Origin: an uncultured Chloroflexia bacterium
GTDB lineage: Bacteria; Chloroflexota; Anaerolineae; Anaerolineales; Anaerolineaceae
Direction: 5' to 3'
Length of the DNA: 32,000 bases
Assembly (NCBI GenBank): GCA_963704755.1
Contig: OY969938.1
Span: 930,001-962,000, forward strand
Position numbers and translations under genes: made by a program
The notes under the pieces: generated by a model
Seen by the model: only the letters and a program-made list of their open reading frames with translations
What the model was told of the DNA's origin: nothing
Databases searched by the model: none
Shown here: in pieces, positions 6,451 to 29,268 of the stretch
Layout: every line of letters begins with the position of its first letter
Position numbering within the stretch: position 1 is the stretch's first letter

Positions 6451-6489
6451 GGCGGTGTTATTGGGGGCAGAGCCCCCAATAACACCGCC
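6451..6489. repeat. Perfect palindrome P1 (18-bp stem, 3-nt loop)
   Basis: GGCGGTGTTATTGGGGGC-aga-GCCCCCAATAACACCGCC, starting 10 nt after the protease stop codon. No U-tract follows it. Confidence 0.9.
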
Positions 6490-8424: not shown

Positions 8425-8880
8425 GGAACTTTCCCATTATAGTCCATACAAGTTACCGGAAAACTATACAGTTTGGTAATAGAAATGAGTTTACCCCGCT
8501 CCATATTCATCTCCTGTTGTGCCCATATATACACGGGCAACCTGGTTTTTCCCCCCGAACGTTCCTGTACCGGCCAAAAGTTAGCCACTTTTCTGTCGAT
8601 TTAGAATGAATCTCCTCATTAGCAATGGGAAATACTATTCCCCGACCGGCGATCTCCCCATAAACCCGTAACTTATTTGTTGTGTATATTATAACTGTAA
8701 ATTTCCTAAAAATATACTAGATAATTATTAGAATATTATAACCGACCTTTCCGGTAATATTTTAGTGGATTTCTTGCGCGTTTGCCCGCAAATTTACCTG
8801 AATATAAACCGCTCACACTTACCTGGAAGAGAATTCGGGGCAATCGCAACCTGCCAATTTAGTCCCAATTGAGAGATAAT

Positions 8881-8921
8881 TTTGAGTGTTATTTGGGGCG
8901 TAGCCCCAAATAACACTCAAA
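8881..8921. repeat. Perfect palindrome P2 (19-bp stem, 3-nt loop), related to P1
   Basis: TTTGAGTGTTATTTGGGGC-gta-GCCCCAAATAACACTCAAA. It shares GTGTTATT(G/T)GGGGC with P1 and is embedded in further imperfect inverted/direct repeats (8822-8984). Confidence 0.9.
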
Positions 8922-9071
8922 AAACCATTCTTTGGGGAATTGCCCTCGAAAAGCAGGCAGGTTGCAATCGCCCTGGGAAGAGAAAGGAGAAGGAAGATTA
9001 ACTAAACCTATCCGTTTTATAATCTCTTAATTCGCGCTCCTTTAAGAATATATTGGTATCATTGGAAAGAT

Positions 9072-10256: not shown

Positions 10257-10603
10257 ACCCTGATGGCTGTATTTTTTGCCGGATCATCGCCGGCGAAGCC
10301 CCGGCAAATATCCTCTACAGCGATGAGACGGTGACCGCCTTCGATAACCTCAATCCGATTGCACCGGTCCACATCCTCATCGTACCCAACCGGCACATCG
10401 AATCGGTCAACCTGGTCGAAGCCGGCGACGAACAGGTCGTTGGCCACCTCAGCCGGGTAGCTCGCCTGCTGGCTGAAAGGCTGGGCGTCCAATCCTCCGG
10501 CTATCGCCTGGTGATCAATACTGGACCGGATGCGGGCCAGTCTGTTTTTCACCTTCACATGCATTTGATCGGCGGCCGGCGTTTACCCTTCAGGTTCGAA
10601 TGA
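10253..10603 (+). CDS. HIT-family (histidine triad) nucleotide hydrolase/transferase
   Basis: CIFCRIIAGE at the N-terminus and the HIT motif HLHMHLIGG. There are ATGA-type overlaps with both neighbours. Confidence 0.9.
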   Translation: MNPDGCIFCRIIAGEAPANILYSDETVTAFDNLNPIAPVHILIVPNRHIESVNLVEAGDEQVVGHLSRVARLLAERLGVQSSGYRLVINTGPDAGQSVFHLHMHLIGGRRLPFRFE

Positions 10604-12147
10604 GTCACACCCGCACGTCTCGCAACTTCTGGAAGTTTTCCTGGATCGTGATCGCGATCGTTCTGGCCGGCTGCGTCCAGCCCGCCCCCCAATCGGGCCT
10701 GTGGCGGCCGGCCGAAACCACCGGAACACCCAATCCGAGCCAGCCCAATCCGCTGGCGACCGGCATCTATTTACAAGTACCGGCCACGCATGCACCCGGT
10801 ACACCTTTCCTGACACCTACCCCGGATGAGATCCATCCGGTACCGACCCTCAATACCGAACCGCAGGAATATGTAATCGCCGCCGGAGATACGCTTGGCA
10901 AGGTCGCCTCAGCCTACAACGTCAGCCTGGATACCTTGATCCAGGCCAATAACATCAGCAACGCTAACCTGGTCGAAGTGGGCCAACAGATCGTCATCCC
11001 GGCGCCTTCTCCTGAACCCGTGGGATCTTCCTTCAAGATCATCCCGGATTCCGAAGTGGTCTATAACCCCACCACCGTCCAGTTCGATGTCTTTTCTTTC
11101 GTTAAAAAATCCGGCGGGTATTTATTGAGCTACCGCGAAGATTTGACCGACGGCCTGTACACCGGCGCAGAGATCGTGCTAAAGGTAGCTCGCGAGTATT
11201 CCGTCAACCCGCGCCTGCTGCTGGCGGTGTTGGAATACCAGAGCGGTTGGGTGACCAACCCGAACCCATCTCTCCAGAGCCCGGATTACCCGATCGGCCT
11301 GGAAGATGCCGGCTACAAGGGCCTTTATTTGCAGCTTTCCTGGGCCGCCAATAATTTGAACCGCGGTTATTACCTCTGGAAAGTAAACGCGGTCTCGGAT
11401 TGGCTGCTCTCGGACGGCAGTGTGGTGCCGCCGGCACCAACCATCAACGCCGGCACTGCCGCCGTCCAGGGAATGATGGGGTTCCTTTATACGCGCGCCG
11501 GCTGGGACACGGCCGTCGGCCCGGATGGCGTGTTCAAAACCTACACCGACCTGTTCGGTTACCCGTTCGATTATGCTTACGAACCGTCCCTCCCGGCCGG
11601 CTTGAGCCAGCCGGTCCTGCAATTGCCCTTCCCCCAGGGCGATACCTGGTCGTTCACCGGCGGGCCGCATGCGGGTTGGGGCGAAGGCTCCGCCTGGGCC
11701 GCCATCGATTTTGCCCCGCCGGATGCGGGCGCAAACTGCGCGATCAGCGATGCGTTTGCCACCGCCGTAGCCGACGGGCTGGTCGTTCGCACCGATACCG
11801 GTGTGGTGGTGCTCGACCTGGACGAAGACGGCTACGAGCAGACCGGTTGGACCATTCTTTATTTGCATATGGCCGATGCCGGCAAGGTCCAGGTGGGCAC
11901 CTTCGTCAAGGCCGGTGATCCCATCGGGCACCCTTCTTGTGAAGGCGGGGTGGCGACTGGCACCCACGTTCACCTGGCCCGGCGGTATAATGGCGAGTGG
12001 ATTTCTGCGGATGGCCCATTGCCGTTCAACCTGGGCGGCTGGGTTTCGAGTGGGACCGGTGTCGAATACGAGGGGTCATTAGTCAAAGACGGTGTGACCG
12101 TAAAGGCTGTAGATAGGGTTGATCCTGAAAATCAAATCTCGTGGTAG
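10600..12147 (+). CDS. LysM-domain, M23-like metallopeptidase lipoprotein (paralog 1 of 3)
   Basis: Lipobox IVLAGC. The LysM segment is YVIAAGDTLGKVASAYNVSLDTLIQANNISNANLVEVGQQIVIP. The C-terminus has GGPHAGWGEGSAWAAIDFAP (H-x12-D) and GHPSCEGGVATGTHVHLARRYNGEW (HxH). Confidence 0.85.
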   Translation: MSHTRTSRNFWKFSWIVIAIVLAGCVQPAPQSGLWRPAETTGTPNPSQPNPLATGIYLQVPATHAPGTPFLTPTPDEIHPVPTLNTEPQEYVIAAGDTLGKVASAYNVSLDTLIQANNISNANLVEVGQQIVIPAPSPEPVGSSFKIIPDSEVVYNPTTVQFDVFSFVKKSGGYLLSYREDLTDGLYTGAEIVLKVAREYSVNPRLLLAVLEYQSGWVTNPNPSLQSPDYPIGLEDAGYKGLYLQLSWAANNLNRGYYLWKVNAVSDWLLSDGSVVPPAPTINAGTAAVQGMMGFLYTRAGWDTAVGPDGVFKTYTDLFGYPFDYAYEPSLPAGLSQPVLQLPFPQGDTWSFTGGPHAGWGEGSAWAAIDFAPPDAGANCAISDAFATAVADGLVVRTDTGVVVLDLDEDGYEQTGWTILYLHMADAGKVQVGTFVKAGDPIGHPSCEGGVATGTHVHLARRYNGEWISADGPLPFNLGGWVSSGTGVEYEGSLVKDGVTVKAVDRVDPENQISW

Positions 12148-13834
12148 GCGCATCCAGATCGCCCTGGCCGGGCTGGTCTTGCTGACCAGTGTTCTGGCCT
12201 GTTCTCAGGGATATGTTTCGAATTATGACCTGACGGCCACGGCATTGTTCCCCTCCACGGCGGTCACCAGCCCGCCCGCGCTTGCCAAGCCGACCAACGC
12301 GGAGGTTTCAGTGGCCGACCCGGCCGTGAGCCCAACTTCACTCCTGGTTCCGCCGACCAGTACCTTTACCGCCACCGACCCGGTCCTGGCCCCCACGGCT
12401 ACCCAGCCGGACGATCCTGTTCAGGATATCACCCCCGTCCCATTGGGCACCTCATTGGAAGGCCCGGTCGATACCCAGGCGCCGACTCGCGTCATTCCTA
12501 CCCCCAACCTGGGCACACCCATGCCGCCGATCCTGTACTACACCCAGGCAGGTGATACGCTCCCTTCCATCGCTTCCCGCTTTGGGGTGGATATAACCGA
12601 TATTTCCTCTACCGAAACGATCCCCGCGACCGGCTTGATCAACGCCGGTAAGCTGCTAATTATTCCGGACCGGCTGGGCGATACCGGCCCCAACGAACTC
12701 ATCCTGCCGGACAGCGAAGTCGTTTTTTCGCCGTCCGCCCTGGATTTCGACATCGACAGTTTCGTCAACCAGGCCGGCGGGTATTTGAGCACCTACCGCG
12801 AATACCTCTCGGGCGGCTGGAAGAGCGGCGCACAGGTGATTTATAAAGTCGCTATCGAAAATTCGATCAACCCGCGCCTGCTGGTGGCCCTGATCGAATA
12901 TCAATCCGGGTGGGTGTACGGCCAACCGGGCAGCCTGGCCCAAACCGATTACCCGCTTGGTTATATCCAACCCGACAAAAAAGGCCTGTATGCCCAGCTC
13001 TACCAGGCTGTCCAGCAGATTATGGTCGGCTATTACGGCTGGCGCGAGGGCACGCTTACCCAGATCGATTTTTCCGACGGCAAATCAATCCGCCTGGCGC
13101 CTCAGCTCAACGCCGGTACGGTAGCCGTGCAATATTTGTTTTCCAACCTGTATAATTCCGAACTATGGAACGGTGTCTTGGGCGGAGACAACAACTTTGG
13201 TGACCTGTACACCAAAATGTTTAGCGATCCCTGGGCGCGCGCTCAAACGGTTGAACCTTTGTTACCCGTAAATTTGACCCAGCCCGATCTAATTTTGCCT
13301 TTCCAGCCCAATTACATCTGGAGCTTCTCAGGCGGGCCGCACGCGGCCTGGGGCCCGGGTGGCGCTCGGGCAGCCCTGGATTTCGCCCCGGCTTCTACCC
13401 AGAGCGGCTGCGTGCCTTCGGATAATTGGGTGACTGCCGTCGCCAGCGGCACTGTGGTGCGCGAAGATACCGGGGTGGTTGTGCTCGATTTGGATGGTGA
13501 CGGCCACGAACAGACCGGCTGGAGCATCCTTTACTTGCATATCGCCACCCGTGATAAGATTGCCCTGGGGACCCAGGTCCAACAAGGTGACCCGATCGGC
13601 CATCCCTCCTGTGAGGGCGGCACTGCGACCGGCACTCACGTCCACATCGCCCGCAAATACAACGGCGAATGGGTGCTGGCGGACGGACCTTTGCCTTTCG
13701 TGATGAGCGGCTGGCGTGTTGTTGCCGGGCCTAACCCCTACCAGGGAGAACTGGTCAAAGATGACCAGGTCGTAACCGCATGTTCCTGCGGGGCATTTGA
13801 AACCCGCATTTCCAGACCTGCCAGTGAACCGTAA
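12119..13834 (+). CDS. LysM-domain, M23-like metallopeptidase lipoprotein (paralog 2 of 3)
   Basis: TTG start overlapping the upstream gene by 29 nt. Lipobox SVLAC, then a long Pro/Thr linker. The LysM segment is YYTQAGDTLPSIASRFGVDITDI. The C-terminus has GGPHAAWGPGGARAALDFAP and GHPSCEGGTATGTHVHIARKYNGEW. Confidence 0.85.
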   Translation: MILKIKSRGRRIQIALAGLVLLTSVLACSQGYVSNYDLTATALFPSTAVTSPPALAKPTNAEVSVADPAVSPTSLLVPPTSTFTATDPVLAPTATQPDDPVQDITPVPLGTSLEGPVDTQAPTRVIPTPNLGTPMPPILYYTQAGDTLPSIASRFGVDITDISSTETIPATGLINAGKLLIIPDRLGDTGPNELILPDSEVVFSPSALDFDIDSFVNQAGGYLSTYREYLSGGWKSGAQVIYKVAIENSINPRLLVALIEYQSGWVYGQPGSLAQTDYPLGYIQPDKKGLYAQLYQAVQQIMVGYYGWREGTLTQIDFSDGKSIRLAPQLNAGTVAVQYLFSNLYNSELWNGVLGGDNNFGDLYTKMFSDPWARAQTVEPLLPVNLTQPDLILPFQPNYIWSFSGGPHAAWGPGGARAALDFAPASTQSGCVPSDNWVTAVASGTVVREDTGVVVLDLDGDGHEQTGWSILYLHIATRDKIALGTQVQQGDPIGHPSCEGGTATGTHVHIARKYNGEWVLADGPLPFVMSGWRVVAGPNPYQGELVKDDQVVTACSCGAFETRISRPASEP

Positions 13835-15335
13835 ACTCTTTTCCGAAACGATAGCCGCTGCGATTTTATCCGTGGGGACGGTTTTTGTGTTGCTGCTCGG
13901 CGCCTGTTCGCCCTTGAATGGGATCAACCCGGCCGAAACCCCCGGCGGGAATTCAAATTCCGCCGAATCGACCCCCGCCGAATCCGTGATCACTCCCACT
14001 GCACTGCCGACCCGTCCACCGTATACCCCCGGTACCCTGGTGGATTACACCGCCCAAACCGGCGACACATTGCCGGCATTGGCGGTCCATTTCAACACCA
14101 CGGTAGACCAGATCCGCTCGGCCAACCCGAATATTCCCGTGGATGCAACCACCATGCCCCCAGGAATGCCGATGAAGATTCCCATCTATTACGAGCCGCT
14201 GTGGGGCAGCCCGTTGCAGATCATCCCCGACAGCCTGTTCGTCAACGGGCCGGCCCAGGTCGGCTTCGATGCCGTGCAGTTTGTCAATTCCCAGCCAGGC
14301 TGGTTCAAGAACTACGTTTTTTACACCGGTGACCAGAACCGCCGCGGCGGCGAGATTGTCAATTACATCGCCGAGGACTTCAGCGTCAGCCCGCGCCTGC
14401 TGCTGGCCATCCTGGAATACCAAACTGGCGCCTTGAGCAACCCCAACCGCCCGGCCAATATCGACCAATACCCCTTAGGCTACCAGGACCAATTCCATCT
14501 AGGCGCCGGCCGCCAGTTGGCCTGGGCTGCCAATGCGCTCAATAACGGCTATTACGGCTGGCGCATCGGTAATTTGAACAGCTTCACCCACCAGAACGGC
14601 CGCATCGAACAGCCAGACCCGTGGCAAAATGCCGCTACGGTGGGACTGCAATATTATTTCGCCCAGGTTCTGTCTGAAGATGCCTATGCGAAAGCCATTT
14701 CCGCCGATGGCCTGCTGAAGACCTACACGGCTTTATTTGGCGACCCCTGGCAGAACGTGCAGACTCTCATCCCCGGTAGCCTGACGGTTCCCAACATGGA
14801 TTTTCCTTTTGCCCCTAATCATGTTTGGGCCTTCACCGGTGGGCCGCACACCGGCTGGGGTGAAGGAGAGCCGTACGCTGCGGTCGATTTTGCTCCGGGC
14901 AATACCGTCGGGGGCTGCAGCCCCAGTCCGGAGCCGGCCACTGCCGTCGCCGATGGGATCATTGCTGCAACCGACGACGCCAAGGCATTTTTGGACCTGG
15001 ATGGCGACATGGATATCCGCACCGGTTGGGTCGTGATGTACCTGCACCTGGCCAACGATTCCCTTCCCAAGGTGGGCAAGGTGCTCAAGATGCGCGACCC
15101 GATCGGTATGCCCTCCTGCGAAGGCGGTGAGGCAACCGGTACCCACGTCCATATTGCCCGCATGTACAATGGCGAGTGGATACCTGCCGGTGGCGTGCTG
15201 GCTTACAACCTGGAGGGTTGGGTGGTCACTGCTGGCAGCCAGGCTTACCAAGGGACCATGACCAACGGGATCCGGGTGGTCAAAGCCTGCGTCTGCTCGG
15301 ACCAGTATGCTCAAGTCAGCGCGACAAGCCCATAA
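13797..15335 (+). CDS. LysM-domain, M23-like metallopeptidase lipoprotein (paralog 3 of 3)
   Basis: The start is uncertain: TTG 13797 or GTG 13824. Lipobox LLLGAC. The LysM segment is YTAQTGDTLPALAVHFNTTVDQIRSANPNI. The C-terminus has GGPHTGWGEGEPYAAVDFAP and GMPSCEGGEATGTHVHIARMYNGEW. Confidence 0.85.
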   Translation: MKPAFPDLPVNRKLFSETIAAAILSVGTVFVLLLGACSPLNGINPAETPGGNSNSAESTPAESVITPTALPTRPPYTPGTLVDYTAQTGDTLPALAVHFNTTVDQIRSANPNIPVDATTMPPGMPMKIPIYYEPLWGSPLQIIPDSLFVNGPAQVGFDAVQFVNSQPGWFKNYVFYTGDQNRRGGEIVNYIAEDFSVSPRLLLAILEYQTGALSNPNRPANIDQYPLGYQDQFHLGAGRQLAWAANALNNGYYGWRIGNLNSFTHQNGRIEQPDPWQNAATVGLQYYFAQVLSEDAYAKAISADGLLKTYTALFGDPWQNVQTLIPGSLTVPNMDFPFAPNHVWAFTGGPHTGWGEGEPYAAVDFAPGNTVGGCSPSPEPATAVADGIIAATDDAKAFLDLDGDMDIRTGWVVMYLHLANDSLPKVGKVLKMRDPIGMPSCEGGEATGTHVHIARMYNGEWIPAGGVLAYNLEGWVVTAGSQAYQGTMTNGIRVVKACVCSDQYAQVSATSP

Positions 15336-16692: not shown

Positions 16693-16741
16693 AAAGGAGT
16701 TTTATTATTGAGCGCAATGCGCTCAATAATAAAACTCCTTT
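16693..16741. terminator. Perfect palindrome P3 (23-bp stem, 3-nt loop); likely bidirectional terminator between convergent genes
   Basis: AAAGGAGTTTTATTATTGAGCGC-aat-GCGCTCAATAATAAAACTCCTTT. It is flanked by A-runs on the left and AAAATTTTTT on the right, so both transcripts would end in a hairpin plus a U-rich tract. Confidence 0.65.
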
Positions 16742-17983: not shown

Positions 17984-18038
17984 GGGTGTTTTTGTTGTTT
18001 TTCGCGTGCTTCGCACGCGAAAAACAACAAAAACACCC
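17984..18038. repeat. Perfect palindrome P4 (26-bp stem, 3-nt loop), same family as P6
   Basis: GGGTGTTTTTGTTGTTTTTCGCGTGC-ttc-GCACGCGAAAAACAACAAAAACACCC, located between the anti-sigma stop and the thioredoxin-fold gene. Confidence 0.9.
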
Positions 18039-20099: not shown

Positions 20100-20172
20100 G
20101 AGAATGATCCTGAAAAGGAGGTATTCACGGGGGCTTCGCCCCCGTGAATACCTCCTTTTCAGGATCATTCTC
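20100..20172. repeat. Perfect palindrome P5 (35-bp stem, 3-nt loop)
   Basis: GAGAATGATCCTGAAAAGGAGGTATTCACGGGGGC-ttc-GCCCCCGTGAATACCTCCTTTTCAGGATCATTCTC, located between the tsaD start and the M24 peptidase stop. Confidence 0.9.
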
Positions 20173-20191
20173 CAGATTTCAAAGGGAAAAG

Positions 20192-21427
20192 CTACTGCCG
20201 GATGGGCAGCACAAAATCGTAGGGATATTCGGCCAGGGACTCGAAAGTACCATCCGCGTTGGCCACAAAGGTATTCTCCACCCGGAAGCCCATCCCGCGT
20301 GAGGGGTAATACAGACCAGGCTCGATGGCGAACACGCTGCCGGGCGCCAGAATGTCCAGGCTGCCGGCATTCGCACCTGAGAAAGGCATCTCATGAATGT
20401 GCAGGCCAACTCCATGTCCGATGCTGTGGACGTAGCCTTCCTGGGTCCCGGGCGTGGACAGACTGGTAGGGTGGCCGTAAGCTTCGAACAGCTCGCAGGT
20501 CTTTCGCTGCACATCCTGGAAAGGTGCGTTGAGCTTCAATTCGGTGACGATTTGTTTATACACTTCCAATACCTGGACGTACAACTCGAGGGCTTTATCG
20601 GTGGCATAACCCAGTGACCAGGTGCGGGTGAAATCATAAAAATAGCCCCCACCGGCCTCACAGGGGAAGATATCGAACACGATCGTCTCGCCCAATCGCA
20701 GCACATCGTTCGGGCTGCCGCTGCTGTGGGGTACCCCGGCATCCCGGCCAATCGCGAAGATGGTCCCTTCCGGATTCTCCGCGCCCAGTTCGGCCAGCCA
20801 CAGGTCGATGTTCGATTTGACATCCTTGATCCGTAAGGGCTGCCCGTCCGGCTTGACCAGCATCTCATTGCGCGCGTGGTGGCTGGTTATGAAATCCGCC
20901 GTCCGGCTGACTACCTCGGTGGTGGTCCTGGCAATTTTACGGATCCGATCGATCTCGTCCGGGTCCTTGGTCATCATAGCCGGCAGCAGGATTGGATCGT
21001 CGTAGAAACCGGTAAATTCGATATCGGGCATCAGATTGCTCAATCGCCCAATGGCAGCCACGAATGGGCCGACTTCCACCTGGCCGTACAAGGCTACCCG
21101 GCCGTGGGTGATGCCCAGGTCTTCGAGCATTTGCTTATAACGTAAAGCGATACTCATGGCGACGTCGCCATCGGCCTGTTGATAAAACCCGTGCAGCGGG
21201 TATTGAGAAAGCGTGCGCACGTTCAAATGCGTCTTGGCGGCTTCCTCGCGCTCCATATCGTTGCAAAAAACCGTGCCGGTGCCATCGCAAGGTTTGATCA
21301 AGGTTGCCTGGGTAACGTGTCCGCCTCCGGTCAGGTAAGTCATGGCCGGATTATGGAAAGCATCTCCGCTCACCAATAATGCATCGATCTGGTTTTGCTT
21401 CATCAACTGGTCAATCTCTTTTTTCAT
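20192..21427 (-). CDS. M24-family Xaa-Pro aminopeptidase/dipeptidase
   Basis: C-terminal metal-binding contexts FDIFPCEAGGGYFYDFTRT, HSIGHGVGLHIHEMPF, FAIEPGLY and VENTFV, plus a creatinase-like N-terminal domain. Confidence 0.9.
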   Translation of the reverse strand: MKKEIDQLMKQNQIDALLVSGDAFHNPAMTYLTGGGHVTQATLIKPCDGTGTVFCNDMEREEAAKTHLNVRTLSQYPLHGFYQQADGDVAMSIALRYKQMLEDLGITHGRVALYGQVEVGPFVAAIGRLSNLMPDIEFTGFYDDPILLPAMMTKDPDEIDRIRKIARTTTEVVSRTADFITSHHARNEMLVKPDGQPLRIKDVKSNIDLWLAELGAENPEGTIFAIGRDAGVPHSSGSPNDVLRLGETIVFDIFPCEAGGGYFYDFTRTWSLGYATDKALELYVQVLEVYKQIVTELKLNAPFQDVQRKTCELFEAYGHPTSLSTPGTQEGYVHSIGHGVGLHIHEMPFSGANAGSLDILAPGSVFAIEPGLYYPSRGMGFRVENTFVANADGTFESLAEYPYDFVLPIRQ

Positions 21428-21478
21428 TGACGTAACCTCTTTTCAATATGTTCGTCTACGCACGGTGATCCGCGCAGA

Positions 21479-21889
21479 TTATTCGTGGCCAGATTCTTTC
21501 GGGGTAAACCGGCTGCGCTCTGCCAACCGTAAAGCAAATTCGATCACCCCCAACCCCGCGGCCAGCGCTACCGCTAGAGGCAGGCTGAGGAAACGTCCCA
21601 GTTGAAACCAGGCAATCAAATCGAAATATACCCCCGCCCAAATTGCTTCGCGAATGATAATACTCGCCGAGACTTTGGAATCTCTACTGAAGCGCCAATG
21701 GAAGAAATAGACCGCCGGCAAGGCCAATCCACTGACCGCGATCGTGCTCAAGAAGAAGAAAAACCAGCGCGGTCCCAGGGTTGGGACCGTAAAATTGAAC
21801 AAATAAAATAAACCTGCCAACCCGATCCCGCCCAGGATCAAGCTGGTGGCCAGGAAAGGCAGAAAAGGAGGGAGTCGCGATTCTTCCAA
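21479..21889 (-). CDS. Small membrane protein (3-4 hydrophobic segments), function unknown
   Basis: The ORF has no internal ATG. A TTG at 21889 is preceded by AAGAGGA. The longer ORF-track start (22027) would read through the 18-bp hairpin at 21950-22000. Hydrophobic stretches include PPFLPFLATSLILGGIGLAGLFYLF and FFFFLSTIAVSGLALPAVYFF. Confidence 0.5.
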   Translation of the reverse strand: MEESRLPPFLPFLATSLILGGIGLAGLFYLFNFTVPTLGPRWFFFFLSTIAVSGLALPAVYFFHWRFSRDSKVSASIIIREAIWAGVYFDLIAWFQLGRFLSLPLAVALAAGLGVIEFALRLAERSRFTPKESGHE

Positions 21890-21949
21890 AAAATCCTCTT
21901 TGATGGGTAGCCTTTGCCGGTAACTATTCAGGCTCGTGTAAGAAAATTC

Positions 21950-22000
21950 CGAATTTGAGGTGTTGGTTGAGAAAAATCCCCTACCAACACCTCGAATTCG
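21950..22000 (-). terminator. Candidate intrinsic terminator of the APH-like gene
   Basis: On the minus strand, CGAATTCGAGGTGTTGGT, a 15-nt loop and ACCAACACCTCAAATTCG pair at 17 of 18 positions. GAATTTTCTT follows. Confidence 0.45.
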
Positions 22001-22034
22001 TTTTATTTTACTCGTTGGGCTGAACAATTCCCTT

Positions 22035-22841
22035 TTAATAAATTATAACCTCATCCCCTTGAGACAAGGACACCAGCCAGGCTTGAATTTCCGGGATATT
22101 CTCGCTCAAGCGGGCCGCCGCCACAACCGGCAGCCAGCGGGCGTATTCCACTTTGGCCTGAGGTTTATCCTTGAAATAGTTGTTCAAATATTCTTTGACA
22201 AACAGGCGCAAAAAACGTTTTTCCAGCGGGCTGACCGCCTGCTCGCTGGCGGCCGCGCCTAACATAATGATCACTGTGCGGGCCACGTCCGCCAATGGAT
22301 TGCCGCTGCTGGCATCGCTCCAATCGATGATGATCGCGCCGTCCGGGGTAATCATCACGTTGCCCGGGTGGAAATCACCGTGGCAAACCTGTTCGCCATC
22401 CGGCAGGGTGTTGAGTTCGGCGATCAGCTTATCTTGGGCCAGCCGGGAGAGCACACTGGCATGGCTGATTTTCCACTCCAGGATCATCCGCTGGGCCGGC
22501 AGGTCGTTGCCGGTAATGGTGTGGACGCGTTGGTGCAGGGAACCCAACTGCCTGGCATAGGCATTCAAGCGCCAGGGCTGGCGTCGAAAATATTCCAGCA
22601 TCGTCCGCCCGTCGACCCGCTCATAAACCAGCCCGTTGCGCCCATCTACCTGCACGATCTCCCCCACCGCGGGCACCGGCAGTCCGCCGGCGTGAACGGC
22701 TTGGGCCAGCCTGGCTTCATATTCAATGCCATCCTGGCCGACCCACTCGTGAAAGAGCTTCAACACCTGGCCATCGCCATACGGGTAAACGTCGGCGGTC
22801 CGTCCCTGGGCCAGGGGTTTGGAGTTAAGAATTTCATTCAT
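22035..22841 (-). CDS. Aminoglycoside/choline-kinase-type phosphotransferase (APH family)
   Basis: The catalytic loop and metal-binding contexts are VCHGDFHPGNVMITPDGAIIIDWSDASSGNPLADVA; 268 aa. Confidence 0.85.
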   Translation of the reverse strand: MNEILNSKPLAQGRTADVYPYGDGQVLKLFHEWVGQDGIEYEARLAQAVHAGGLPVPAVGEIVQVDGRNGLVYERVDGRTMLEYFRRQPWRLNAYARQLGSLHQRVHTITGNDLPAQRMILEWKISHASVLSRLAQDKLIAELNTLPDGEQVCHGDFHPGNVMITPDGAIIIDWSDASSGNPLADVARTVIIMLGAAASEQAVSPLEKRFLRLFVKEYLNNYFKDKPQAKVEYARWLPVVAAARLSENIPEIQAWLVSLSQGDEVIIY

Positions 22842-22887
22842 AAAGAGTCACCACCATTGCGGGGATACCGTAAATTCTAACCGAAAC

Positions 22888-22944
22888 GGGGAGTTTTTAT
22901 TGTTTTTCGCGTGCTTCGCACGCGAAAAACAATAAAAACTCCCC
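22888..22944. repeat. Perfect palindrome P6 (27-bp stem, 3-nt loop), same family as P4
   Basis: GGGGAGTTTTTATTGTTTTTCGCGTGC-ttc-GCACGCGAAAAACAATAAAAACTCCCC. The inner 15 bp of each arm, plus the loop, are identical to P4. Confidence 0.9.
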
Positions 22945-22980
22945 TAATTTCCGAATGGGTAGCGCCGACCATTCTAATTC

Positions 22981-23596
22981 CTACGGAACTGGGTTTGGAA
23001 TGCGTAGCTCGGGTTTCCAACCCGAGAAAACGCCGGCCGGTCAAGAACCAGGCAATAGGATCAGGCCCCGCCCGAAAGGAGACCCACGCAGGTGGGTCTT
23101 TGTGCATCCGTAGGTGCAGCTTTAGCTGCTACGAGCCTGGCCAAAAATGCCGGCCTTGCTACCCCCCGGCTTTGAAAGCCGGGCTACAGAACTGGGTTTG
23201 GAAAACGTAGCTCGGGTTGGAAACCCGAGAAAACGCCGGCCGGTCAAGAACCAGGCTATAGGATCAGGCCCCGCCCGAAAGGAGACCCACGCAGGTGGGT
23301 CTTTGTGCATCCGTAGGCACAGCTTTAGCTGCTGCGGGCCTGGCCAAAAATGCCGGCCTTGCTACTCCCCGGCTTTGAAAGCCGGGCTACGGAACCAGGT
23401 TTGGATAATGTAGCTCGGGTTTCCAACCCGAGAAAGCGCCGGCCAAACTATATCCAGGCTATGGAAATGACTTCTGCCCAAAAGGAGACCCACGCAGGTG
23501 GGTCTTTGTGTATCCGTAGGTGCAGCTTTAGCTGCTGCGAGCCTGGCCAAAAATGCCGGCCTTGCTACCCCCCGGCTTTGAAAGCCGGGCTACGAA
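22981..23596. repeat. Tandem array of three complete 203-nt units plus about 7 nt of a fourth; hairpin-rich and non-coding
   Basis: Units start at 22981, 23184 and 23387, and a truncated one at 23590 (CTACGGA/CTACAGA/CTACGGA/CTACGAA). Copies 1 and 2 differ at roughly a dozen positions. Copy 3 carries a substituted block. Each unit has four conserved hairpins. Confidence 0.9.
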
Positions 23597-23628
23597 ATTC
23601 TCATGCTTCCTAAAATTTTGGATCCTTT

Positions 23629-23657
23629 TTGAATTTTTATATCAAATGTGGTAGAAT
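23629..23657 (+). promoter_or_regulatory. Sigma-70-type promoter for the SAM riboswitch/metH transcript
   Basis: TTGAAT (23629-23634), a 17-nt spacer, then TGgTAGAAT (extended -10, with TAGAAT at 23652-23657). This is about 15 nt upstream of the riboswitch P1 helix. Confidence 0.55.
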
Positions 23658-23671
23658 TTTTTTCAACATTT

Positions 23672-23788
<117 letters not shown>

Positions 23789-23806
23789 GAACAAAGTTCA
23801 CAAGCG

Positions 23807-23828
23807 CCTCTCGTCCGAGAGGTTTTTT
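23807..23828 (+). terminator. Riboswitch expression-platform intrinsic terminator
   Basis: CCTCTCG-tc-CGAGAGG followed by TTTTTT (23823-23828). AGGAG and the metH ATG (23845) come immediately after. Confidence 0.8.
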
Positions 23829-23844
23829 ATTACAGGAGTGCGGA

Positions 23845-26800
23845 ATGCAGCGAAAATATACCAATCGCCGGTACCTGGATGCTTTGGAAGAACGTGTATT
23901 GATATTCGATGGGGCCATGGGCACCAGCCTTCAGCAAATGGAACTGACCGCCGAGCAGTTCGGCGGTGAGCGCACCAATGGGTGTAACGACTACCTGGTG
24001 ATCAGCTACCCGCAGGCGGTCGAACAGATTCATCGTTCCTTCCTGGAAGTCGGCGTGGACGTCATCGAGACCGACACCTTTCGTTCGAACCGGCTGACCC
24101 TGGCCGAATACGGTCTGCAAGAGCGGGTGCTCGAGATCAATACCGTCGCGGCCCAACTGGCCCGCCGGCTGGCCGACGAGTACAGTCGGGAGGACCATCC
24201 ACGTTTCGTGGCCGGCTCGATCGGCCCGTCCGGCAAGCTGCCCTCCATGGACGACCCCGAGCTTTCCAACGTCAGCTTTGCCGAACTGGCCGATATCTTC
24301 CGTGAACAGGCCCTCGGCCTGCTGCGCGGCGGCGTGGACCTGATCCTGATCGAGACCTCCCAGGATATTCTGGAAGTCAAGGCCGCCATCCTGGGCATCC
24401 AGACCGCCTTTGCCGAAACCGGCATCTACCTGCCCCTCCAGGCCCAGGTAACCCTGGATACCAGCGGCCGCATGCTGTTGGGCACCGACATCAGCGCGGT
24501 CGAGGCCATTCTGGAAGGGCTGCCCATCGACGTGATCGGGCTGAACTGCTCCACCGGCCCGGAACACATGCGCGACCCCATCCGCTACCTGGGCGAACAG
24601 ACCAACCTGCCCGTTTCCTGCATTCCCAACGCCGGCCTGCCCTTGAACGTGGATGGCAAGGCCGTCTATCCGCTCGAGCCCGAACCGTTTGCCGAAGCCA
24701 TGGCCGAGTTCGTCGAAAAGAACCACATCAGTGTGGTTGGCGGCTGCTGCGGCACCACCCCGGCCCACCTCAAGCTGCTGGTCGAGAAGATCGGCGGCCA
24801 TCGCCGCCCCGCCCGGCCAATTTTGGATATTCCCCGCCTGGCCTCCGCCATGCAGGCCCAACCCATGCTGCAAGAGCCGCGTCCCTTCCTGATCGGCGAA
24901 CGGCTCAACACTCAGGGATCGCGCAAATTCAAACGCCTGATCCTGGACGAGCAGTTCGACGACGTGCTCGAGATTGCCCGCGACCAGGTCGATTCAGGCG
25001 CTCACGGCCTGGATGTGTGCGTGGCTCTAACCGAACGGGCCAACGAAGCCGAGACCATCCGCAAAGTGATCAAAAAGCTGGCTCCGTTGATCAACGTGCC
25101 GCTGGTAATCGATACCACCGAATTGGAAGTGCTGGAAACCGCCCTGCAAACTGCCCCTGGGCGCTGCCTGATCAATTCGACCCACCTGGAAAGCGGGCGT
25201 GAAAAAGCCGACCGGGTCTTCAGCCTGGCCAAGAAGTATAACGCGGCCGTCATCGTCCTGACCATCGATGAACAGGGCATGGCCAAAACGGTCGAGCGCA
25301 AACTGGAAGTGGCCAAACGGATCTACGATATCGCCGTGAACGACAACGGCTTGAAACCCGAAGACCTGGTCTTCGATGCCCTGACGTTTACCCTGGCCAC
25401 CGGCGACGCCGAGTTCAGTAATTCGGCCCTGGATACCATTCAAGGCATCCGCACGATCAAAGCTGAACTGCCGGGCGTGCTGACCTCGCTGGGCGTCAGC
25501 AACGTATCTTTTGGCTTGCAGCCGCGCGCCAGGGCCATCCTCAACAGCGTTATGCTTTACCACTGTGTGCAGGCCGGCCTGGATATGGCCATCGTCAACC
25601 CGGCCCAGATCAAACCCTACGCCGAAATTCCGGCCGAAGAACGCCGTTTGGCCGAGGATCTGATCCTCAACCGTGCACCGGATGCGCTGCAAAAATTGAT
25701 CGAAGCCGTCAGCCAGGCTGACCCGGACGAGGACACCCAAAAAGGCGGCGTCCAGGCCATTCTGGCAACCCTCAACGCCGAAGAGCGCCTGCACTGGCGC
25801 ATCCTGCACCGCCTCAAGGACGGCGTCGAGGACGACATCGAAGAGATCCTTCACCGCGACGGTGTGACCTCGCTCAACGAAACTGCTGTAATCGTACTGA
25901 ATACCGTTCTATTGCCGGCCATGAAAGAAGTGGGCGACAAGTTCGGTTCCGGCGAGTTGATCCTGCCGTTCGTGCTCCAGTCGGCCGAAGTGATGAAAAA
26001 GGCCGTCAGCCACCTGGAAAACTACCTGGAAAAACAGGAAGGCGTCAGCAAAGGGCTGCTGGTGCTGGCCACCGTATATGGCGACGTGCATGACATCGGC
26101 AAGAACCTGGTTAAGACCATCCTCTCTAACAACGGCTACGACGTCATCGACCTGGGCAAACAGGTGCCGGCCGAGACGATTATCTCCAAGGCGGTCGAAG
26201 TCAACGCCAGCGCCATCGGCCTGAGCGCGCTGCTGGTCAGCACCAGCAAGCAAATGCCGCTGATCGTCAACGAGCTGCACCGGCGCGGGTTGAGCTACCC
26301 GGTGTTGATCGGCGGAGCGGCCATCAATCCGCGCTTCGGCCGCCGGATTCTGCGCACCGAAGACGGCCAGGTTTACGAGCCCGGCGTGTTTTACTGCAAA
26401 GATGCCTTCGAAGGTCTCTACACCATGGATTCGCTCAGCGACCCGCAAAAAAAAGCGGATTTGGTGGCACGTATCCAGCGCGAATCCGACATGGAATTGG
26501 GCCGGGAAACCAAACCGGCTGCCTCGCTGAATGGCACCCAGCGATCGAATGTACAACCCGCAAAATTCATCCCGCGGCCGCCCTCCTGGGGCCCGCGGGT
26601 AGTCCATTCGATGCCCTTGCAGGAGGTCTTCACCTGCCTGGCCAAAAACGAGCTTTTCCGCCTGTCCTGGGGCGCCAAGAATACTCACGGCGAAGCCTGG
26701 GAAGAGCTGCAAGCCGAATATGAAAAACGGCTGGATCGCATGTGCCGCGAAGCGTTAGCCTCAGGCTGGCTGAACCCGCGCGGCGTGTACGGCTACTGGC

Positions 26801-27360
26801 CGGTCCAGGCGGATGGCAACGATTTGGTGGTTTTCGAGCCGGCGTCGGTCCAGGCCGGTTCGCCGGTGGAGATGGAGCGCTTCAACTTCCTGCGCCAATC
26901 CGGCGGCGATAATCTCTGCCTGGCCGATTATTTCCTGCCCCTGGGCTCAGAAACCCTGGACGTGGTCGCATTCCAGATCGTTACCGTCGGTGAACAGGCT
27001 TCACAACACTTCGAGAATTTGCAAGACAGCGCCAATTACTCCGAGGCCTATTTTGGCCACGGGCTGGCCGTACAAACGGCTGAAGCCGCCGCCGAATACC
27101 TGCATCGCCACATCCGCCGCGAACTGGGGCTGCCGGCCGAGCAGGGCAAGCGCTATTCCTGGGGCTACCCCTCCATCCCGGACCTGTCCGACCACCAGAA
27201 AGTTTTCCGCCTGTTGCCGGCTGAATCCGAGCTGGGGATGCACCTGACCGAAGCCTACCAGCTCGTACCGGAACAGTCCACAGCTGCCATCATCCTTCAC
27301 CATCCGCAGGCGCGTTATTTCAACCTGGGTGAAAGCCGGGTTGAGCAGTTATCCCGTTAA
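23845..27360 (+). CDS. metH: Cobalamin-dependent methionine synthase
   Basis: 1171 aa. The Hcy-binding domain has VVGGCCGTTPAH. A pterin-binding domain follows. The B12-binding motif is GDVHDIGKN with ...SALLVST..., and there is a C-terminal AdoMet activation domain (RYSWGYPSIPD). Confidence 0.95.
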   Translation: MQRKYTNRRYLDALEERVLIFDGAMGTSLQQMELTAEQFGGERTNGCNDYLVISYPQAVEQIHRSFLEVGVDVIETDTFRSNRLTLAEYGLQERVLEINTVAAQLARRLADEYSREDHPRFVAGSIGPSGKLPSMDDPELSNVSFAELADIFREQALGLLRGGVDLILIETSQDILEVKAAILGIQTAFAETGIYLPLQAQVTLDTSGRMLLGTDISAVEAILEGLPIDVIGLNCSTGPEHMRDPIRYLGEQTNLPVSCIPNAGLPLNVDGKAVYPLEPEPFAEAMAEFVEKNHISVVGGCCGTTPAHLKLLVEKIGGHRRPARPILDIPRLASAMQAQPMLQEPRPFLIGERLNTQGSRKFKRLILDEQFDDVLEIARDQVDSGAHGLDVCVALTERANEAETIRKVIKKLAPLINVPLVIDTTELEVLETALQTAPGRCLINSTHLESGREKADRVFSLAKKYNAAVIVLTIDEQGMAKTVERKLEVAKRIYDIAVNDNGLKPEDLVFDALTFTLATGDAEFSNSALDTIQGIRTIKAELPGVLTSLGVSNVSFGLQPRARAILNSVMLYHCVQAGLDMAIVNPAQIKPYAEIPAEERRLAEDLILNRAPDALQKLIEAVSQADPDEDTQKGGVQAILATLNAEERLHWRILHRLKDGVEDDIEEILHRDGVTSLNETAVIVLNTVLLPAMKEVGDKFGSGELILPFVLQSAEVMKKAVSHLENYLEKQEGVSKGLLVLATVYGDVHDIGKNLVKTILSNNGYDVIDLGKQVPAETIISKAVEVNASAIGLSALLVSTSKQMPLIVNELHRRGLSYPVLIGGAAINPRFGRRILRTEDGQVYEPGVFYCKDAFEGLYTMDSLSDPQKKADLVARIQRESDMELGRETKPAASLNGTQRSNVQPAKFIPRPPSWGPRVVHSMPLQEVFTCLAKNELFRLSWGAKNTHGEAWEELQAEYEKRLDRMCREALASGWLNPRGVYGYWPVQADGNDLVVFEPASVQAGSPVEMERFNFLRQSGGDNLCLADYFLPLGSETLDVVAFQIVTVGEQASQHFENLQDSANYSEAYFGHGLAVQTAEAAAEYLHRHIRRELGLPAEQGKRYSWGYPSIPDLSDHQKVFRLLPAESELGMHLTEAYQLVPEQSTAAIILHHPQARYFNLGESRVEQLSR

Positions 27361-27366
27361 TGGATT

Positions 27367-29268
27367 ATGAACACCTACCAGAAATTCCGCGAATATCTCG
27401 CCGAACAGCACCCGGTCCTTTCGGACGGTGCCATGGGGACGCTGCTAAACCAGCACGGGGTCCAGTTCGAGCAGTGTTTCGATGAGCTCAACCTGACCAA
27501 CCCGGCCATGGTCGCCGGCATCCACAAGGAATACATCGACGCCGGCGCCATCATGATCCAGACCAACACCTTTGGCGCCAATCCCTACAAACTGGCCCAC
27601 CACGGGCTGGAAGACCGGCTGGTCGATATTAATGCGGCCGCCGTCGAGCTGGCCCACCGGGTGGTGCTGGCTTCTTTTCAGGACGTAATGATCGCCGGGG
27701 ATATCGGCCCGCTTGGCGTGCGCCTGGCGCCTTTTGGACGGGTCCAGCCTGAACAGGCGCGCCAGGCTTTTGCCCGCCAGATCGAAGCCCTGGTGGATGC
27801 CGGCGTGGACTTGCTCATCGTCGAAACGATGACCGATGTTTATGAGGTCCGCGAAGCTATTTTGGCCGCCCGCCAGGTGGACCCCAACATCCCCATTATC
27901 GCCTCGATGACCTTCACCCGCGATGACCGTACTTTGCTGGGTGACGACCCGGCCCGGGTCGCCCGGCGAATCCATGAAGCCGGCGCGGATGTGATCGGGG
28001 TCAACTGTTCGGGCGGGCCTAACCAGATCCTGCGGATCCTCAAACACATGCAAAGCGCCTTGCCCCAAGGCAAATTCTCGGTCATGCCGAATGCCGGCTG
28101 GCCGGAGCAGGCCGATGGGCGCATCAAGTACCCGGCTTCACCGGATTATTTCTCCGATTACACCCAGGCCTTCCTGCAAACCGGAGCCTGCGTAATCGGC
28201 GGCTGCTGTGGGACTACTCCCGGCCACATCGAGGTGATGCGCAAAGCTATGGATACCTTCGAACCGGCCGATTTGGCTAAGGGATTTAGCATCAGCGTGG
28301 TGGAAAAAGAAGAGGCTGAAGAGGAGACCACTGCCCCGACCCGTTTTGCGCAAAAACTGGCTGCCGGTCGTTTTGCCGTGGCGGTCGAGATGGACCCGCC
28401 GCGCGGGCTGACTACCCAAAAGGTGCTGGCCGGCTCCAGCCTGCTGGCCGACGCTGGCGCGGATGTGATCAACGTGGCCGACAGCCCCATGGCGCGTATG
28501 CGCATGAGCCCCTGGGCGGTTTGCCGCCTGATCCAGGATAAAGTTGGCATCGAGACCGTGCTGCACTTCCCCACCCGCGGGCGAAACCTGCTGCGGGTGC
28601 AGGGCGATTTGCTGGCCGCCCATGCCTTAGGCGTGCACAACGTATTCGTCGTCATGGGCGACCCTACCTCTATCGGCGACTACCCCGAGGCCATGGACAA
28701 TTTCGACCTGGTCCCCTCCGGGCTGATCAAACTGATTAAACAGGGTTTCAACGCCGGCGTCGATCACGCCGGGGTCAACATCGGCCAGCCGACCAATTTT
28801 TTCGTCGGCTGCGCGCTCAATTTGAACCCGGCCAACCCGGAAGCCGAGATCAAGAACCTGCGCCGCAAGCTGGCCGCAGGCGCCGACTTCTTGCTTACCC
28901 AGCCCATTTACGACCCCGAGCCTGCCCATAAGTTTTATAGCCGCATCCAGGCGGAGATCCCCGATTTTCACCAACCGCTGCTGGTCGGCTTGCTGCCGCT
29001 GGTCTCGGACCGGCACGCCGCTTTCCTGCAGCATGAGGTCCCCGGTATCGACATTCCCGACGCCATTCACCGCCAGATGCGCACGGCCGGCGAGCATGGT
29101 TTGCAACAGGGGATCGAAATTGCGATAGAATTAATCGAGCAAATCAAATCCTTTGCCCAGGGCATTTACCTGATGCCTGCATTCAACCGGTTCGATAACG
29201 CCGCCGAAATCATCGAAGCCATTTGCGAGGGAGAGAAAGAGCCGAAACCGGATGCTGTTAACGATTGA
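27367..29268 (+). CDS. Bifunctional homocysteine S-methyltransferase / 5,10-methylenetetrahydrofolate reductase (YitJ-like)
   Basis: The N-terminal Hcy-methyltransferase domain has VLSDGAMGT and VIGGCCGTTPGHI. The C-terminal MTHFR-like domain has AVEMDPPRG, HFPTRGRN and FLLTQPIYD. 633 aa. Confidence 0.9.
   Translation: MNTYQKFREYLAEQHPVLSDGAMGTLLNQHGVQFEQCFDELNLTNPAMVAGIHKEYIDAGAIMIQTNTFGANPYKLAHHGLEDRLVDINAAAVELAHRVVLASFQDVMIAGDIGPLGVRLAPFGRVQPEQARQAFARQIEALVDAGVDLLIVETMTDVYEVREAILAARQVDPNIPIIASMTFTRDDRTLLGDDPARVARRIHEAGADVIGVNCSGGPNQILRILKHMQSALPQGKFSVMPNAGWPEQADGRIKYPASPDYFSDYTQAFLQTGACVIGGCCGTTPGHIEVMRKAMDTFEPADLAKGFSISVVEKEEAEEETTAPTRFAQKLAAGRFAVAVEMDPPRGLTTQKVLAGSSLLADAGADVINVADSPMARMRMSPWAVCRLIQDKVGIETVLHFPTRGRNLLRVQGDLLAAHALGVHNVFVVMGDPTSIGDYPEAMDNFDLVPSGLIKLIKQGFNAGVDHAGVNIGQPTNFFVGCALNLNPANPEAEIKNLRRKLAAGADFLLTQPIYDPEPAHKFYSRIQAEIPDFHQPLLVGLLPLVSDRHAAFLQHEVPGIDIPDAIHRQMRTAGEHGLQQGIEIAIELIEQIKSFAQGIYLMPAFNRFDNAAEIIEAICEGEKEPKPDAVND

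Follow-up and report, generated by a model that had tools for sequence, protein, structure and literature searches.

What is the threefold, hairpin-rich repeat that separates two divergently transcribed genes, one encoding a phosphotransferase of the APH family and the other methionine synthase (metH), in the genome of an uncultured Anaerolineae bacterium of the Chloroflexota phylum? We address this question for a 32,000-nt stretch of contig OY969938.1 (positions 930,001 to 962,000, hereafter the window), in which the repeat occupies positions 22981-23596. An earlier reading of the sequence alone had proposed a tandemly duplicated structured small RNA (sRNA), a protein-binding or architectural array, or a satellite built from an element resembling a MITE (a miniature transposable element with inverted repeats). 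Here we report a computational analysis of the array, which is probably a tandem cluster of GTAG-tagged repetitive extragenic palindromes (REPs), similar to the clusters of bacterial interspersed mosaic elements (BIMEs) or of REP doublets forming hairpins (REPINs), and not a new structured RNA.

Anatomy of the array and its tagged hairpins

The array consists of 3.03 head-to-tail copies of a 203-bp unit, with no insertions or deletions (Table 1). Tandem Repeats Finder delimits it as 22981-23594, with a period of 203, 3.0 copies, 90% matches, 0% indels and a score of 995; the unit starts and the partial fourth copy given by the sequence-only reading are confirmed. Pairwise identity of the units is 94.1% for copies 1 and 2, 86.7% for copies 1 and 3, and 84.7% for copies 2 and 3, the alignment of the three copies having 35 variable columns among 203 gap-free ones, and identical runs of 28-60 bp are still present between copies. 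The G+C content of the array is 0.54-0.61, compared with 0.435-0.465 for the native intergenic DNA on both sides. The repeated block opens at CTACGGAA and closes at CTACGAA, and the unit is bracketed by the short direct repeat CTACGRAA. The pentanucleotide AATTC stands directly before unit 1 (22976-22980) and again directly after the terminal CTACGA (23596-23600); as a single 5-nt match in A+T-rich DNA, this pair could be a 5-bp target-site duplication around a 615-bp block or a chance occurrence.

With its location in the 1003 bp that separate the APH-like gene from metH, the array is extragenic, as REPs are. Its earlier designation as non-coding stands, given that a six-frame query with the composite unit retrieved no homologue among 5.8 billion proteins. 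A 27-codon frame that begins with GTG 10 nt past an AAAGGAG motif was rejected as coding, since four of its six variable columns alter the amino acid in the alignment as read by eye. Within unit columns 59-94, copies 1 and 2 differ at one base, and copy 3 is alignable in part. This variable patch of copy 3 possibly reflects gene conversion from another, unseen copy of the unit or a locally relaxed constraint; a diversity-generating retroelement was rejected as its source, since the differences have no adenine specificity and there is no reverse transcriptase among the annotated open reading frames (ORFs).

Each unit contains three perfect hairpins with arms of at least 8 bp, compared with a mean of 0.026 in dinucleotide-preserving shuffles, none of which reached three (n = 5000); in the 31 kb of the window outside the array, 14 hairpins of this kind occur, six of them being very long intergenic palindromes. 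All four local hairpins listed in the sequence-only reading, here named H1 to H4, were found where it had placed them. H1, H2 and H4 are perfect in all three copies, and H3 has lost its outermost pair in copy 2, where its stem is weakened. The tetranucleotide GTAG stands immediately 5' of H1(+) and H4(-) (offset 0) and 2 nt ahead of H3(+), offsets that are those of the published GTAG-tagged REPs, and it is left unpaired in the DNA folds. The stem and loop dimensions of these hairpins, 8-3-8 for H1, 8-3-8 (or 9-1-9) for H4 and 5-4-5 for H3, lie within the range of a REP stem-loop (stem of 5-13 bp, loop of 2-20 nt). H2 carries no tag and is part of the co-amplified DNA between the REPs.

The association of GTAG with the hairpins exceeds the chance expectation. 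Among all 256 tetranucleotides, GTAG is the sole one that abuts two of the three strong hairpins, and by chance it would occupy at least two of the six hairpin flanks with a probability of 2e-4. Counted together, GTAG and CTAC occur five times per unit versus 1.46 in shuffles (P = 0.014), which corresponds to 22.7 per kb in the array versus 4.4 per kb in the window.

H1(+) and H4(-) have a common geometry and are identical at 18 of 23 positions. Of the five differences, four combine into two compensatory pairs of the stem (T-A versus C-G and G-C versus C-G), and 8 of the 11 independent positions match (P = 0.0016, or about 0.01 when corrected for six comparisons). Their consensus is GTAGCYCGGSTTNNNAASCCGRG, and the pattern of H3 is GTAGGWGCAGCTTTAGCTGC. 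H1 and H4 each fold alone as single-stranded DNA with GTAG unpaired; for H1 of copy 1, the fold has an energy of -8.1 kcal/mol (z = -5.4). On the two sides of the unit junction, H4(-) and H1(+) are placed with their tags turned toward one another, which is the inverted-pair arrangement of BIMEs, and this pair is repeated head to tail together with its flanking sequence, as in BIME and REPIN clusters.

The distribution of substitutions follows this anatomy. The 19-nt spacer between H4 and H1 is the most variable short stretch of the unit, with substitutions in 7 of its 19 columns (7 of the 35 variable columns in total). The three tags are invariant and all four columns preceding the H1 tag vary; stem and tag positions together hold at most one variable column in 72 (P = 0.0033). 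One further change had escaped the sequence-only reading: in copy 2, the H1 loop (23219-23221; columns 36-38) is exactly reverse-complemented, from TCC to GGA, with its stem intact, and positions 28-46 of unit 1 match copy 2 at 100% on the opposite strand only. This change is best read as a DNA-level inversion of the hairpin loop through recombination between the hairpin's own arms.

Relation to known REP systems and to related genomes

The tagged hairpins were compared with two experimentally studied REP types, REPSm and REPMb (PMC8266576). REPSm from Stenotrophomonas maltophilia (group-3 REPtron Sm; SMAG / GTAG families 6-9) is a 16-nt perfect palindrome with a 3-nt interruption and GTAG directly 5' of it (PMC8266576). 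H1 and H4(-) are in exact register with REPSm, their loops occupying positions 13-15, whereas the stem and loop sequences differ. The S. maltophilia REPs occur genome-wide and flank a gene for a REP-associated tyrosine transposase (RAYT), whereas H1 and H4 are known from one cluster in an Anaerolineae-type Chloroflexota host. REPMb from Marinomonas sp. MWYL1 (group-3 REPtron Mb) has a 10-nt palindrome with a 4-nt interruption and a T12-T13-T14-A15 loop, and stands 2 bases from GTAG (PMC8266576). H3 is in the same register, with its TTTA loop at positions 12-15, and differs from REPMb in its stem sequence; its layout is also like that of the GTAG-1/-2 REPs of Pseudomonas, which have a GW dinucleotide and a 3-nt tail. 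H3 is weak as a DNA fold (z = -1.9) and degraded in copy 2, and its assignment to REPs is less secure than that of H1 and H4.

At the level of the whole array, the BIMEs of E. coli and the clusters of Pseudomonas fluorescens SBW25 likewise combine inverted REP pairs and a variable linker into units that are repeated head to tail with flanking sequence. The ordered REPIN clusters of SBW25 are composed of tandem REPINs plus flanking sequence, the largest of them containing four REPINs over more than 700 bp, and in the tandem GI-GIII REP arrays of this strain, spacings of 112 and 72 bp add up to a period of 184 bp (PMC3116915). The present array, with three pairs over 616 bp and a 203-bp period, is of like kind and scale. 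Pairs with their tags inside correspond to the 'TT dimers' of the REP literature, in which spacers tend to vary and unlike partners are common (PMC3733652). Among the earlier proposals, the satellite built from a MITE-like element came closest to the evidence, which allows it to be named as GTAG-tagged REP palindromes in tandem inverted pairs; its MITE component was not borne out, as a comparison of the unit with itself yields internal hairpins and 6-8-nt matches only, and no terminal inverted repeat.

A system from the same phylum is provided by the GTAG-23 REPs of Thermomicrobium roseum (Chloroflexi), which form a few large tandem blocks and to which the array is likened by arrangement, not by consensus sequence. 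The T. roseum elements lie inside CCGSSCC(n3,4)GGSSCGG palindromes, and the unit has GCCGGCC at columns 52-58 and 169-175, which is a loose resemblance. If the REPs of the source genome are confined to blocks as in T. roseum, this would account for the lack of further copies in the window.

Several observations weigh against the assignment to REPs. These repeats are defined by genome-wide repetition, in families of 20 to thousands of units, and here they are known from one cluster in the 32-kb window, with no further REP copy in its remaining 31 kb or in about 170 kb of other loci; the clusters of Pseudomonas and E. coli, in contrast, are a minority among hundreds of dispersed copies. A cognate RAYT gene is typically flanked by the same REPs, as a REPtron; the 32-kb window contains no RAYT gene or other Y1 transposase. 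A REPIN pair forms one long hairpin, whereas the H4/H1 pair folds into two separate hairpins, irrespective of junction and strand; with 18 of 23 positions of the H4/H1 arms complementary, one long imperfect hairpin could form but is not favored. Two separate hairpins are consistent with a heterodimer in the sense of PMC3733652. Divergent genes, as on the two sides of this array, flank REPs less often than any other gene arrangement (PMC3733652), and some 100 bp of every unit, with H2 and the variable patch among them, are 'flanking' DNA without an explanation. Finally, the GTAG tag was spotted only after we had met it in the literature, where the tag itself was defined a priori.

On the REP-cluster interpretation, the unit would comprise the inverted GTAG-tagged pair H4(-)/H1(+), with inward tags and a variable 19-nt spacer, plus about 138 bp of co-amplified DNA that carries H3, tagged and of another layout, and the untagged H2. 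By analogy with the systems studied, single-stranded hairpins with a 5' GTAG would serve as substrates of RAYT (TnpA-REP, a Y1 tyrosine transposase), which would bind the hairpin together with its tag and cleave at CT dinucleotides close by, among them the one within CTAC. The H4/H1 pair may have been placed or formed at this site within the source lineage, and the pair with its flanking DNA would then have been multiplied to three copies. Unequal recombination or slippage between the CTACGRAA repeats is the route suggested by the fact that this direct repeat both brackets the unit and coincides with the REP tag; an amplification mediated by RAYT is conceivable. Later substitutions would have spared the stems and tags, and one loop would have been inverted through recombination between the arms of its hairpin. 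The loop-flipped H1 of copy 2 may be a poorer RAYT substrate, because the reverse complement of the loop was among the mutant substrates tested in PMC8266576. Since the array is upstream of the two divergent promoters and lacks one itself, it is most probably not an RNA gene but selfish or neutral DNA that is not transcribed.

The history of the array was approached through related genomes. The best matches of the APH-like protein outside the source are 67% and 59% identical, the named ones belonging to Anaerolineae, Anaerolineales or Chloroflexota, and the N-terminus of MetH is at most 85% identical to any match, the top named ones being metagenome-assembled genomes of Bellilinea sp. The source genome appears to have no close relative in the collections, and no second strain of the source species was found there. 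Six relatives were examined at the locus (L010, L012, L013, L015, L018, and L019). L010 (ENA ATLA15-1_SAMN03981678-S001_METAG-scaffold_14749) is syntenic, with about 79% DNA identity and the same gene order, and has a 10-N scaffold gap (~1151-1160) exactly at the array site; this gap falls between the upstream palindrome and the conserved TCAAATGTGGTAGAAT promoter, hides the -35 region, and possibly represents an unassembled repeat. L012, L013, and L015 have no array and nothing unit-like upstream of the riboswitch and metH. Their similarity to the intergenic region of the window begins only at ~23642, in the promoter, and their metH upstream regions span 250-506 bp versus 1003 bp in the window. 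The long contigs of two more distant relatives, L018 and L019, likewise contain no array and no trace of a unit.

The homologues of the unit that the sequence-only reading had proposed to look for in relatives are thus missing wherever the region upstream of metH is readable. A pattern scan with the H2 core, GACCCACNNNNGTGGGTCTTTGT, returned five genome, three metagenome and two viral single matches; by blastn, the genome and metagenome matches are limited to the 24-nt hairpin and are therefore attributed to chance. The H2 core belongs to the non-REP part of the unit, and the scan of the genome collection thus says nothing on REP copies. Two further viral pattern scans, one of them with the REP consensus, and blastn searches of plasmid and phage collections gave no match. 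Being absent from the readable relatives and without homologue in the collections, the array is therefore considered a lineage-specific addition. A Y1 gene found in another relative (L011) was rejected as a lead to a RAYT; it encodes an ordinary IS200/IS605 transposase (NF033573) and is uninformative on the source genome.

Competing explanations

A plain local minisatellite, in which hairpin-rich native intergenic DNA was duplicated independently of any mobile REP, appears rather unlikely. It would require that the tags and the likeness of H1 and H4 be coincidental or derived from an older internal inverted duplication. Coincidence is hard to reconcile with the tag statistics (P = 2e-4), the compensatory relatedness of H1 and H4 (P ~0.002-0.01) and the match to two published REP layouts, and native DNA with the G+C content of the array, which is well above that of both flanks. 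What a minisatellite would explain is the occurrence of the unit at this locus only, with the H2-core scans returning chance hairpin matches and both the plasmid and phage blastn and the viral REP-consensus scan empty. It would also suit the partial end unit, by which CTACGRAA comes to bracket the unit in a manner typical of slippage or unequal crossing-over, and a genome generally rich in long perfect intergenic palindromes. A neutral array is expected to collapse by homologous recombination before gathering 12-31 substitutions, whereas here 28-60-bp identical runs survive alongside that number of changes.

The same persistence of three copies at 6-15% divergence despite long identical runs, with stems and tags spared, leaves room for selection. 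The cluster could be a maintained element of the divergent APH-like/metH control region, working as an insulator that takes up supercoils or binds protein, or else as a series of hairpins that is transcribed, and derived from a REP family whose occurrence in this Anaerolineae lineage is limited, as in T. roseum, to a few large tandem blocks, perhaps without any RAYT. We regard this variant as quite unlikely.

Transcription of the array into structured non-coding RNA, either as three sRNAs in tandem or as a long structured leader or antisense RNA that is cut into units, with metH or the APH-like gene as target, is distinctly improbable. Folding of the array does beat that of shuffled sequences (plus strand, z = -3.0; minus strand, z = -4.3), substitutions spare the stems (P = 0.012), and G+C content is above that of the flanking intergenic DNA. 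The linkers are A-rich on the plus strand (AT skew of +0.02 to +0.2), the palindrome at 22888-22944 could terminate a minus-strand transcript, and many REPs are themselves transcribed and act at the RNA level according to the REP literature. However, the three strong hairpins are perfectly Watson-Crick paired and fold equally on both strands, one copy has its H1 loop reverse-complemented, and relatives have nothing comparable. No Rfam family was found in the array region at the gathering threshold, with only low-scoring matches well below the gathering scores up to E = 10, and no tRNA or tmRNA genes were found. The only sigma-70-type promoter in 22500-24000 is that of metH, which points away from the units. 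Terminator-like sites in the units number 4 versus 2.6 +/- 1.8 in shuffles and have poor T-runs.

The higher-order folds put forward by the sequence-only reading do not hold up either. The 6-7-nt matches behind its long-range helices are present at the level expected by chance (blastn-short E = 1.8-7.2), and in minimum-free-energy folds the long-range pairs differ by copy on both strands, only the four local hairpins being constant. Its pseudoknot between CTACGGA and TCCGTAG is accounted for by two opposed GTAG tags, those of H4 (minus) and H3 (plus). Of the predicted pairs, 61 on the plus and 68 on the minus strand, one and two, respectively, show double changes, all in weak short helices, and the three paralogous copies thus offer no usable covariation. 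The proposed tandem structured sRNA is accordingly left without an Rfam family, a unit promoter or convincing terminator, a common global fold, or conservation in relatives. The accompanying statement that the array belongs to no known RNA family or CRISPR was correct, but a known class of DNA repeats, the REPs, had gone unrecognized.

In a further explanation, the array would be an architectural or insulating element placed between divergent promoters. Its palindromes would serve as protein-binding sites, like the enterobacterial BIMEs to which gyrase or IHF binds, or would extrude as cruciforms and take up the negative supercoils of divergent transcription. The array is located exactly between the APH-like promoter region and the metH promoter, its palindromes are perfect and symmetric, the loop flip points to a DNA-level interaction of the H1 arms, and three diverged copies persist despite long identical runs. 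Such a role is nevertheless very improbable: the palindromes have four different sequences and are therefore not one repeated binding site, and relatives have the same promoter pair without the array.

Further candidates were rejected. The NsiR1 array of Nostoc/Anabaena is also made of intergenic tandem direct repeats upstream of a gene, with every repeat reportedly having its own promoter and terminator and giving a ~60-nt sRNA product; an sRNA array of this type was rejected, since the present units have neither promoter nor terminator of their own. A viroid-like or ribozyme multimer was rejected in the absence of any ribozyme match in Rfam up to E = 10, and a CRISPR array, in which repeats of about 23-50 nt alternate with unique spacers of similar size, is contradicted by the repetition of the whole 203-bp unit, the lack of unique spacers and the lack of Cas genes among the annotated ORFs of the window.

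Gene context and implications

The coordinates of the array, its parts and its flanking features are collected in Table 1.

Table 1. Features of the 203-bp repeat array and of its flanks (window positions)
Feature	Position	Strand	Description
Whole array	22981-23596	none	Tandem Repeats Finder, alignment, repeat family D1, boundaries
Units 1, 2, 3	22981-23183, 23184-23386, 23387-23589		Partial fourth unit CTACGAA at 23590-23596
Variable patch, copy 3	23445-23480		Unit columns 59-94; 18 of 27 differences from copy 1; more A+T-rich
H1, copy 1	23004-23026	+	Unpaired GTAG + CTCGGGTT-TCC-AACCCGAG; 8-bp stem, 3-nt loop
H1, copy 2	23207-23229	+	Tag and stem as in copy 1; loop GGA replaces TCC
H1, copy 3	23410-23432	+	
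H4, copy 1	23165-23187	-	GTAG + CCCGGCTT-TCA-AAGCCGGG; tag is the CTAC opening the next unit
H4, copy 2	23368-23390	-	
H4, copy 3	23571-23593	-	CTAC tag is the partial fourth unit closing the array
H3 (REP-like), copy 1	23110-23132	+	GTAG-GT-GCAGC-TTTA-GCTGC-TAC: tag, 2 nt, 5-bp stem, TTTA loop, 3-nt tail
H3, copies 2, 3	23313-23335, 23516-23538	+	
H2, untagged perfect palindrome	23080-23099; also 23283-23302, 23486-23505		AGACCCAC-GCAG-GTGGGTCT
H4(-)/H1(+) spacer, 19 nt	23188-23206 (unit 1/2 junction); equivalents 22985-23003, 23391-23409		
APH-family phosphotransferase gene	22035-22841	-	Transcribed away from the array
27-bp-arm perfect palindrome	22888-22944		Between array and APH-like gene; outside the repeat unit
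Promoter of SAM riboswitch and metH	23629-23657	+	Sigma-70-type, TTGAAT-17-TAGAAT, TG-extended
SAM-I riboswitch aptamer	23672-23787	+	RF00162, 85.4 bits; sole Rfam match above gathering threshold
Terminator-like hairpin	23806-23823		After the riboswitch
metH	23845-27360	+	

The context of the array agrees with its earlier description, with the palindrome, the APH-like gene and the promoter as described there; a distance of 33-35 nt separates the end of the array from the -35 hexamer (23629) of the promoter that serves both the S-adenosylmethionine (SAM) riboswitch and metH. On the minus strand, TGATATAAA at 23636-23644 looks by eye like an extended -10 element placed back-to-back with the -35 of metH. 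Were it functional, the whole array would be traversed by a minus-strand transcript heading for the palindrome at 22888-22944; the element was passed over by the consensus promoter scanner for want of a usable -35. Directly after metH and in the same orientation, a fusion gene (27367-29268) encodes a second homocysteine S-methyltransferase plus an MTHFR domain and is probably part of the same SAM-riboswitch-controlled operon. The MetH protein of the window has no exact record in the protein collections and an N-terminus at most 85% identical to any match, although its neighbor, the APH-like protein, is present there at 100%; the source record may give metH a different start or list it as a pseudogene.

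The palindrome next to the array is one of six very long perfect intergenic palindromes in the window (6451-6489, 8880-8922, 16693-16741, 17984-18038, 20100-20172, and 22888-22944), with arms of 18-35 bp and loops of 1-3 nt, none of which carries a GTAG tag. The palindromes at 17984-18038 and 22888-22944 are 93% identical siblings, with similarity reaching ~70 nt; T-runs precede and A-runs follow their G+C core, opposite to the order in a canonical intrinsic terminator. L010 has different palindromes at two corresponding positions, upstream of the APH-like gene and between the genes for an M24 peptidase and TsaD. A contig from the Logan collection (ERR11571143; L001) is 99.96% identical to 20138-22922, and the sample evidently contains the source species. 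At its two ends, this short-read contig stops inside the palindromes at 20100-20172 and 22888-22944; its end near the array is due to the perfect palindromes and not to the array. Elsewhere in the window, 10600-15335 holds three tandem paralogous genes (10600-12147, 12119-13834, and 13797-15335), all three with LysM and the first two with an M23 peptidase domain; their 66-77% DNA similarity accounts for the repeat families D2-D4, with spacings of ~1500-1670 bp.

To a specialist in bacterial repeats, the assignment of the array to a REP cluster will be unsurprising. For genome annotation, it turns an apparent structured-RNA candidate into a recognizable repeat class with a simple rule, GTAG followed by a perfect palindrome, in inverted pairs. 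REP/RAYT systems have been described mostly in Proteobacteria, with T. roseum as the only representative of Chloroflexi in the REP literature surveyed. If the assignment is true, the array would be a second example from Chloroflexi, this time in Anaerolineae, which would make clustered REP blocks a recurring form in the phylum, and it would predict a group-3-type RAYT in the source genome. At the locus itself, the promoter of the SAM-riboswitch-controlled methionine synthase operon has about 600 bp added immediately upstream by the cluster, and changes in the copy number of the array could affect the metH promoter.

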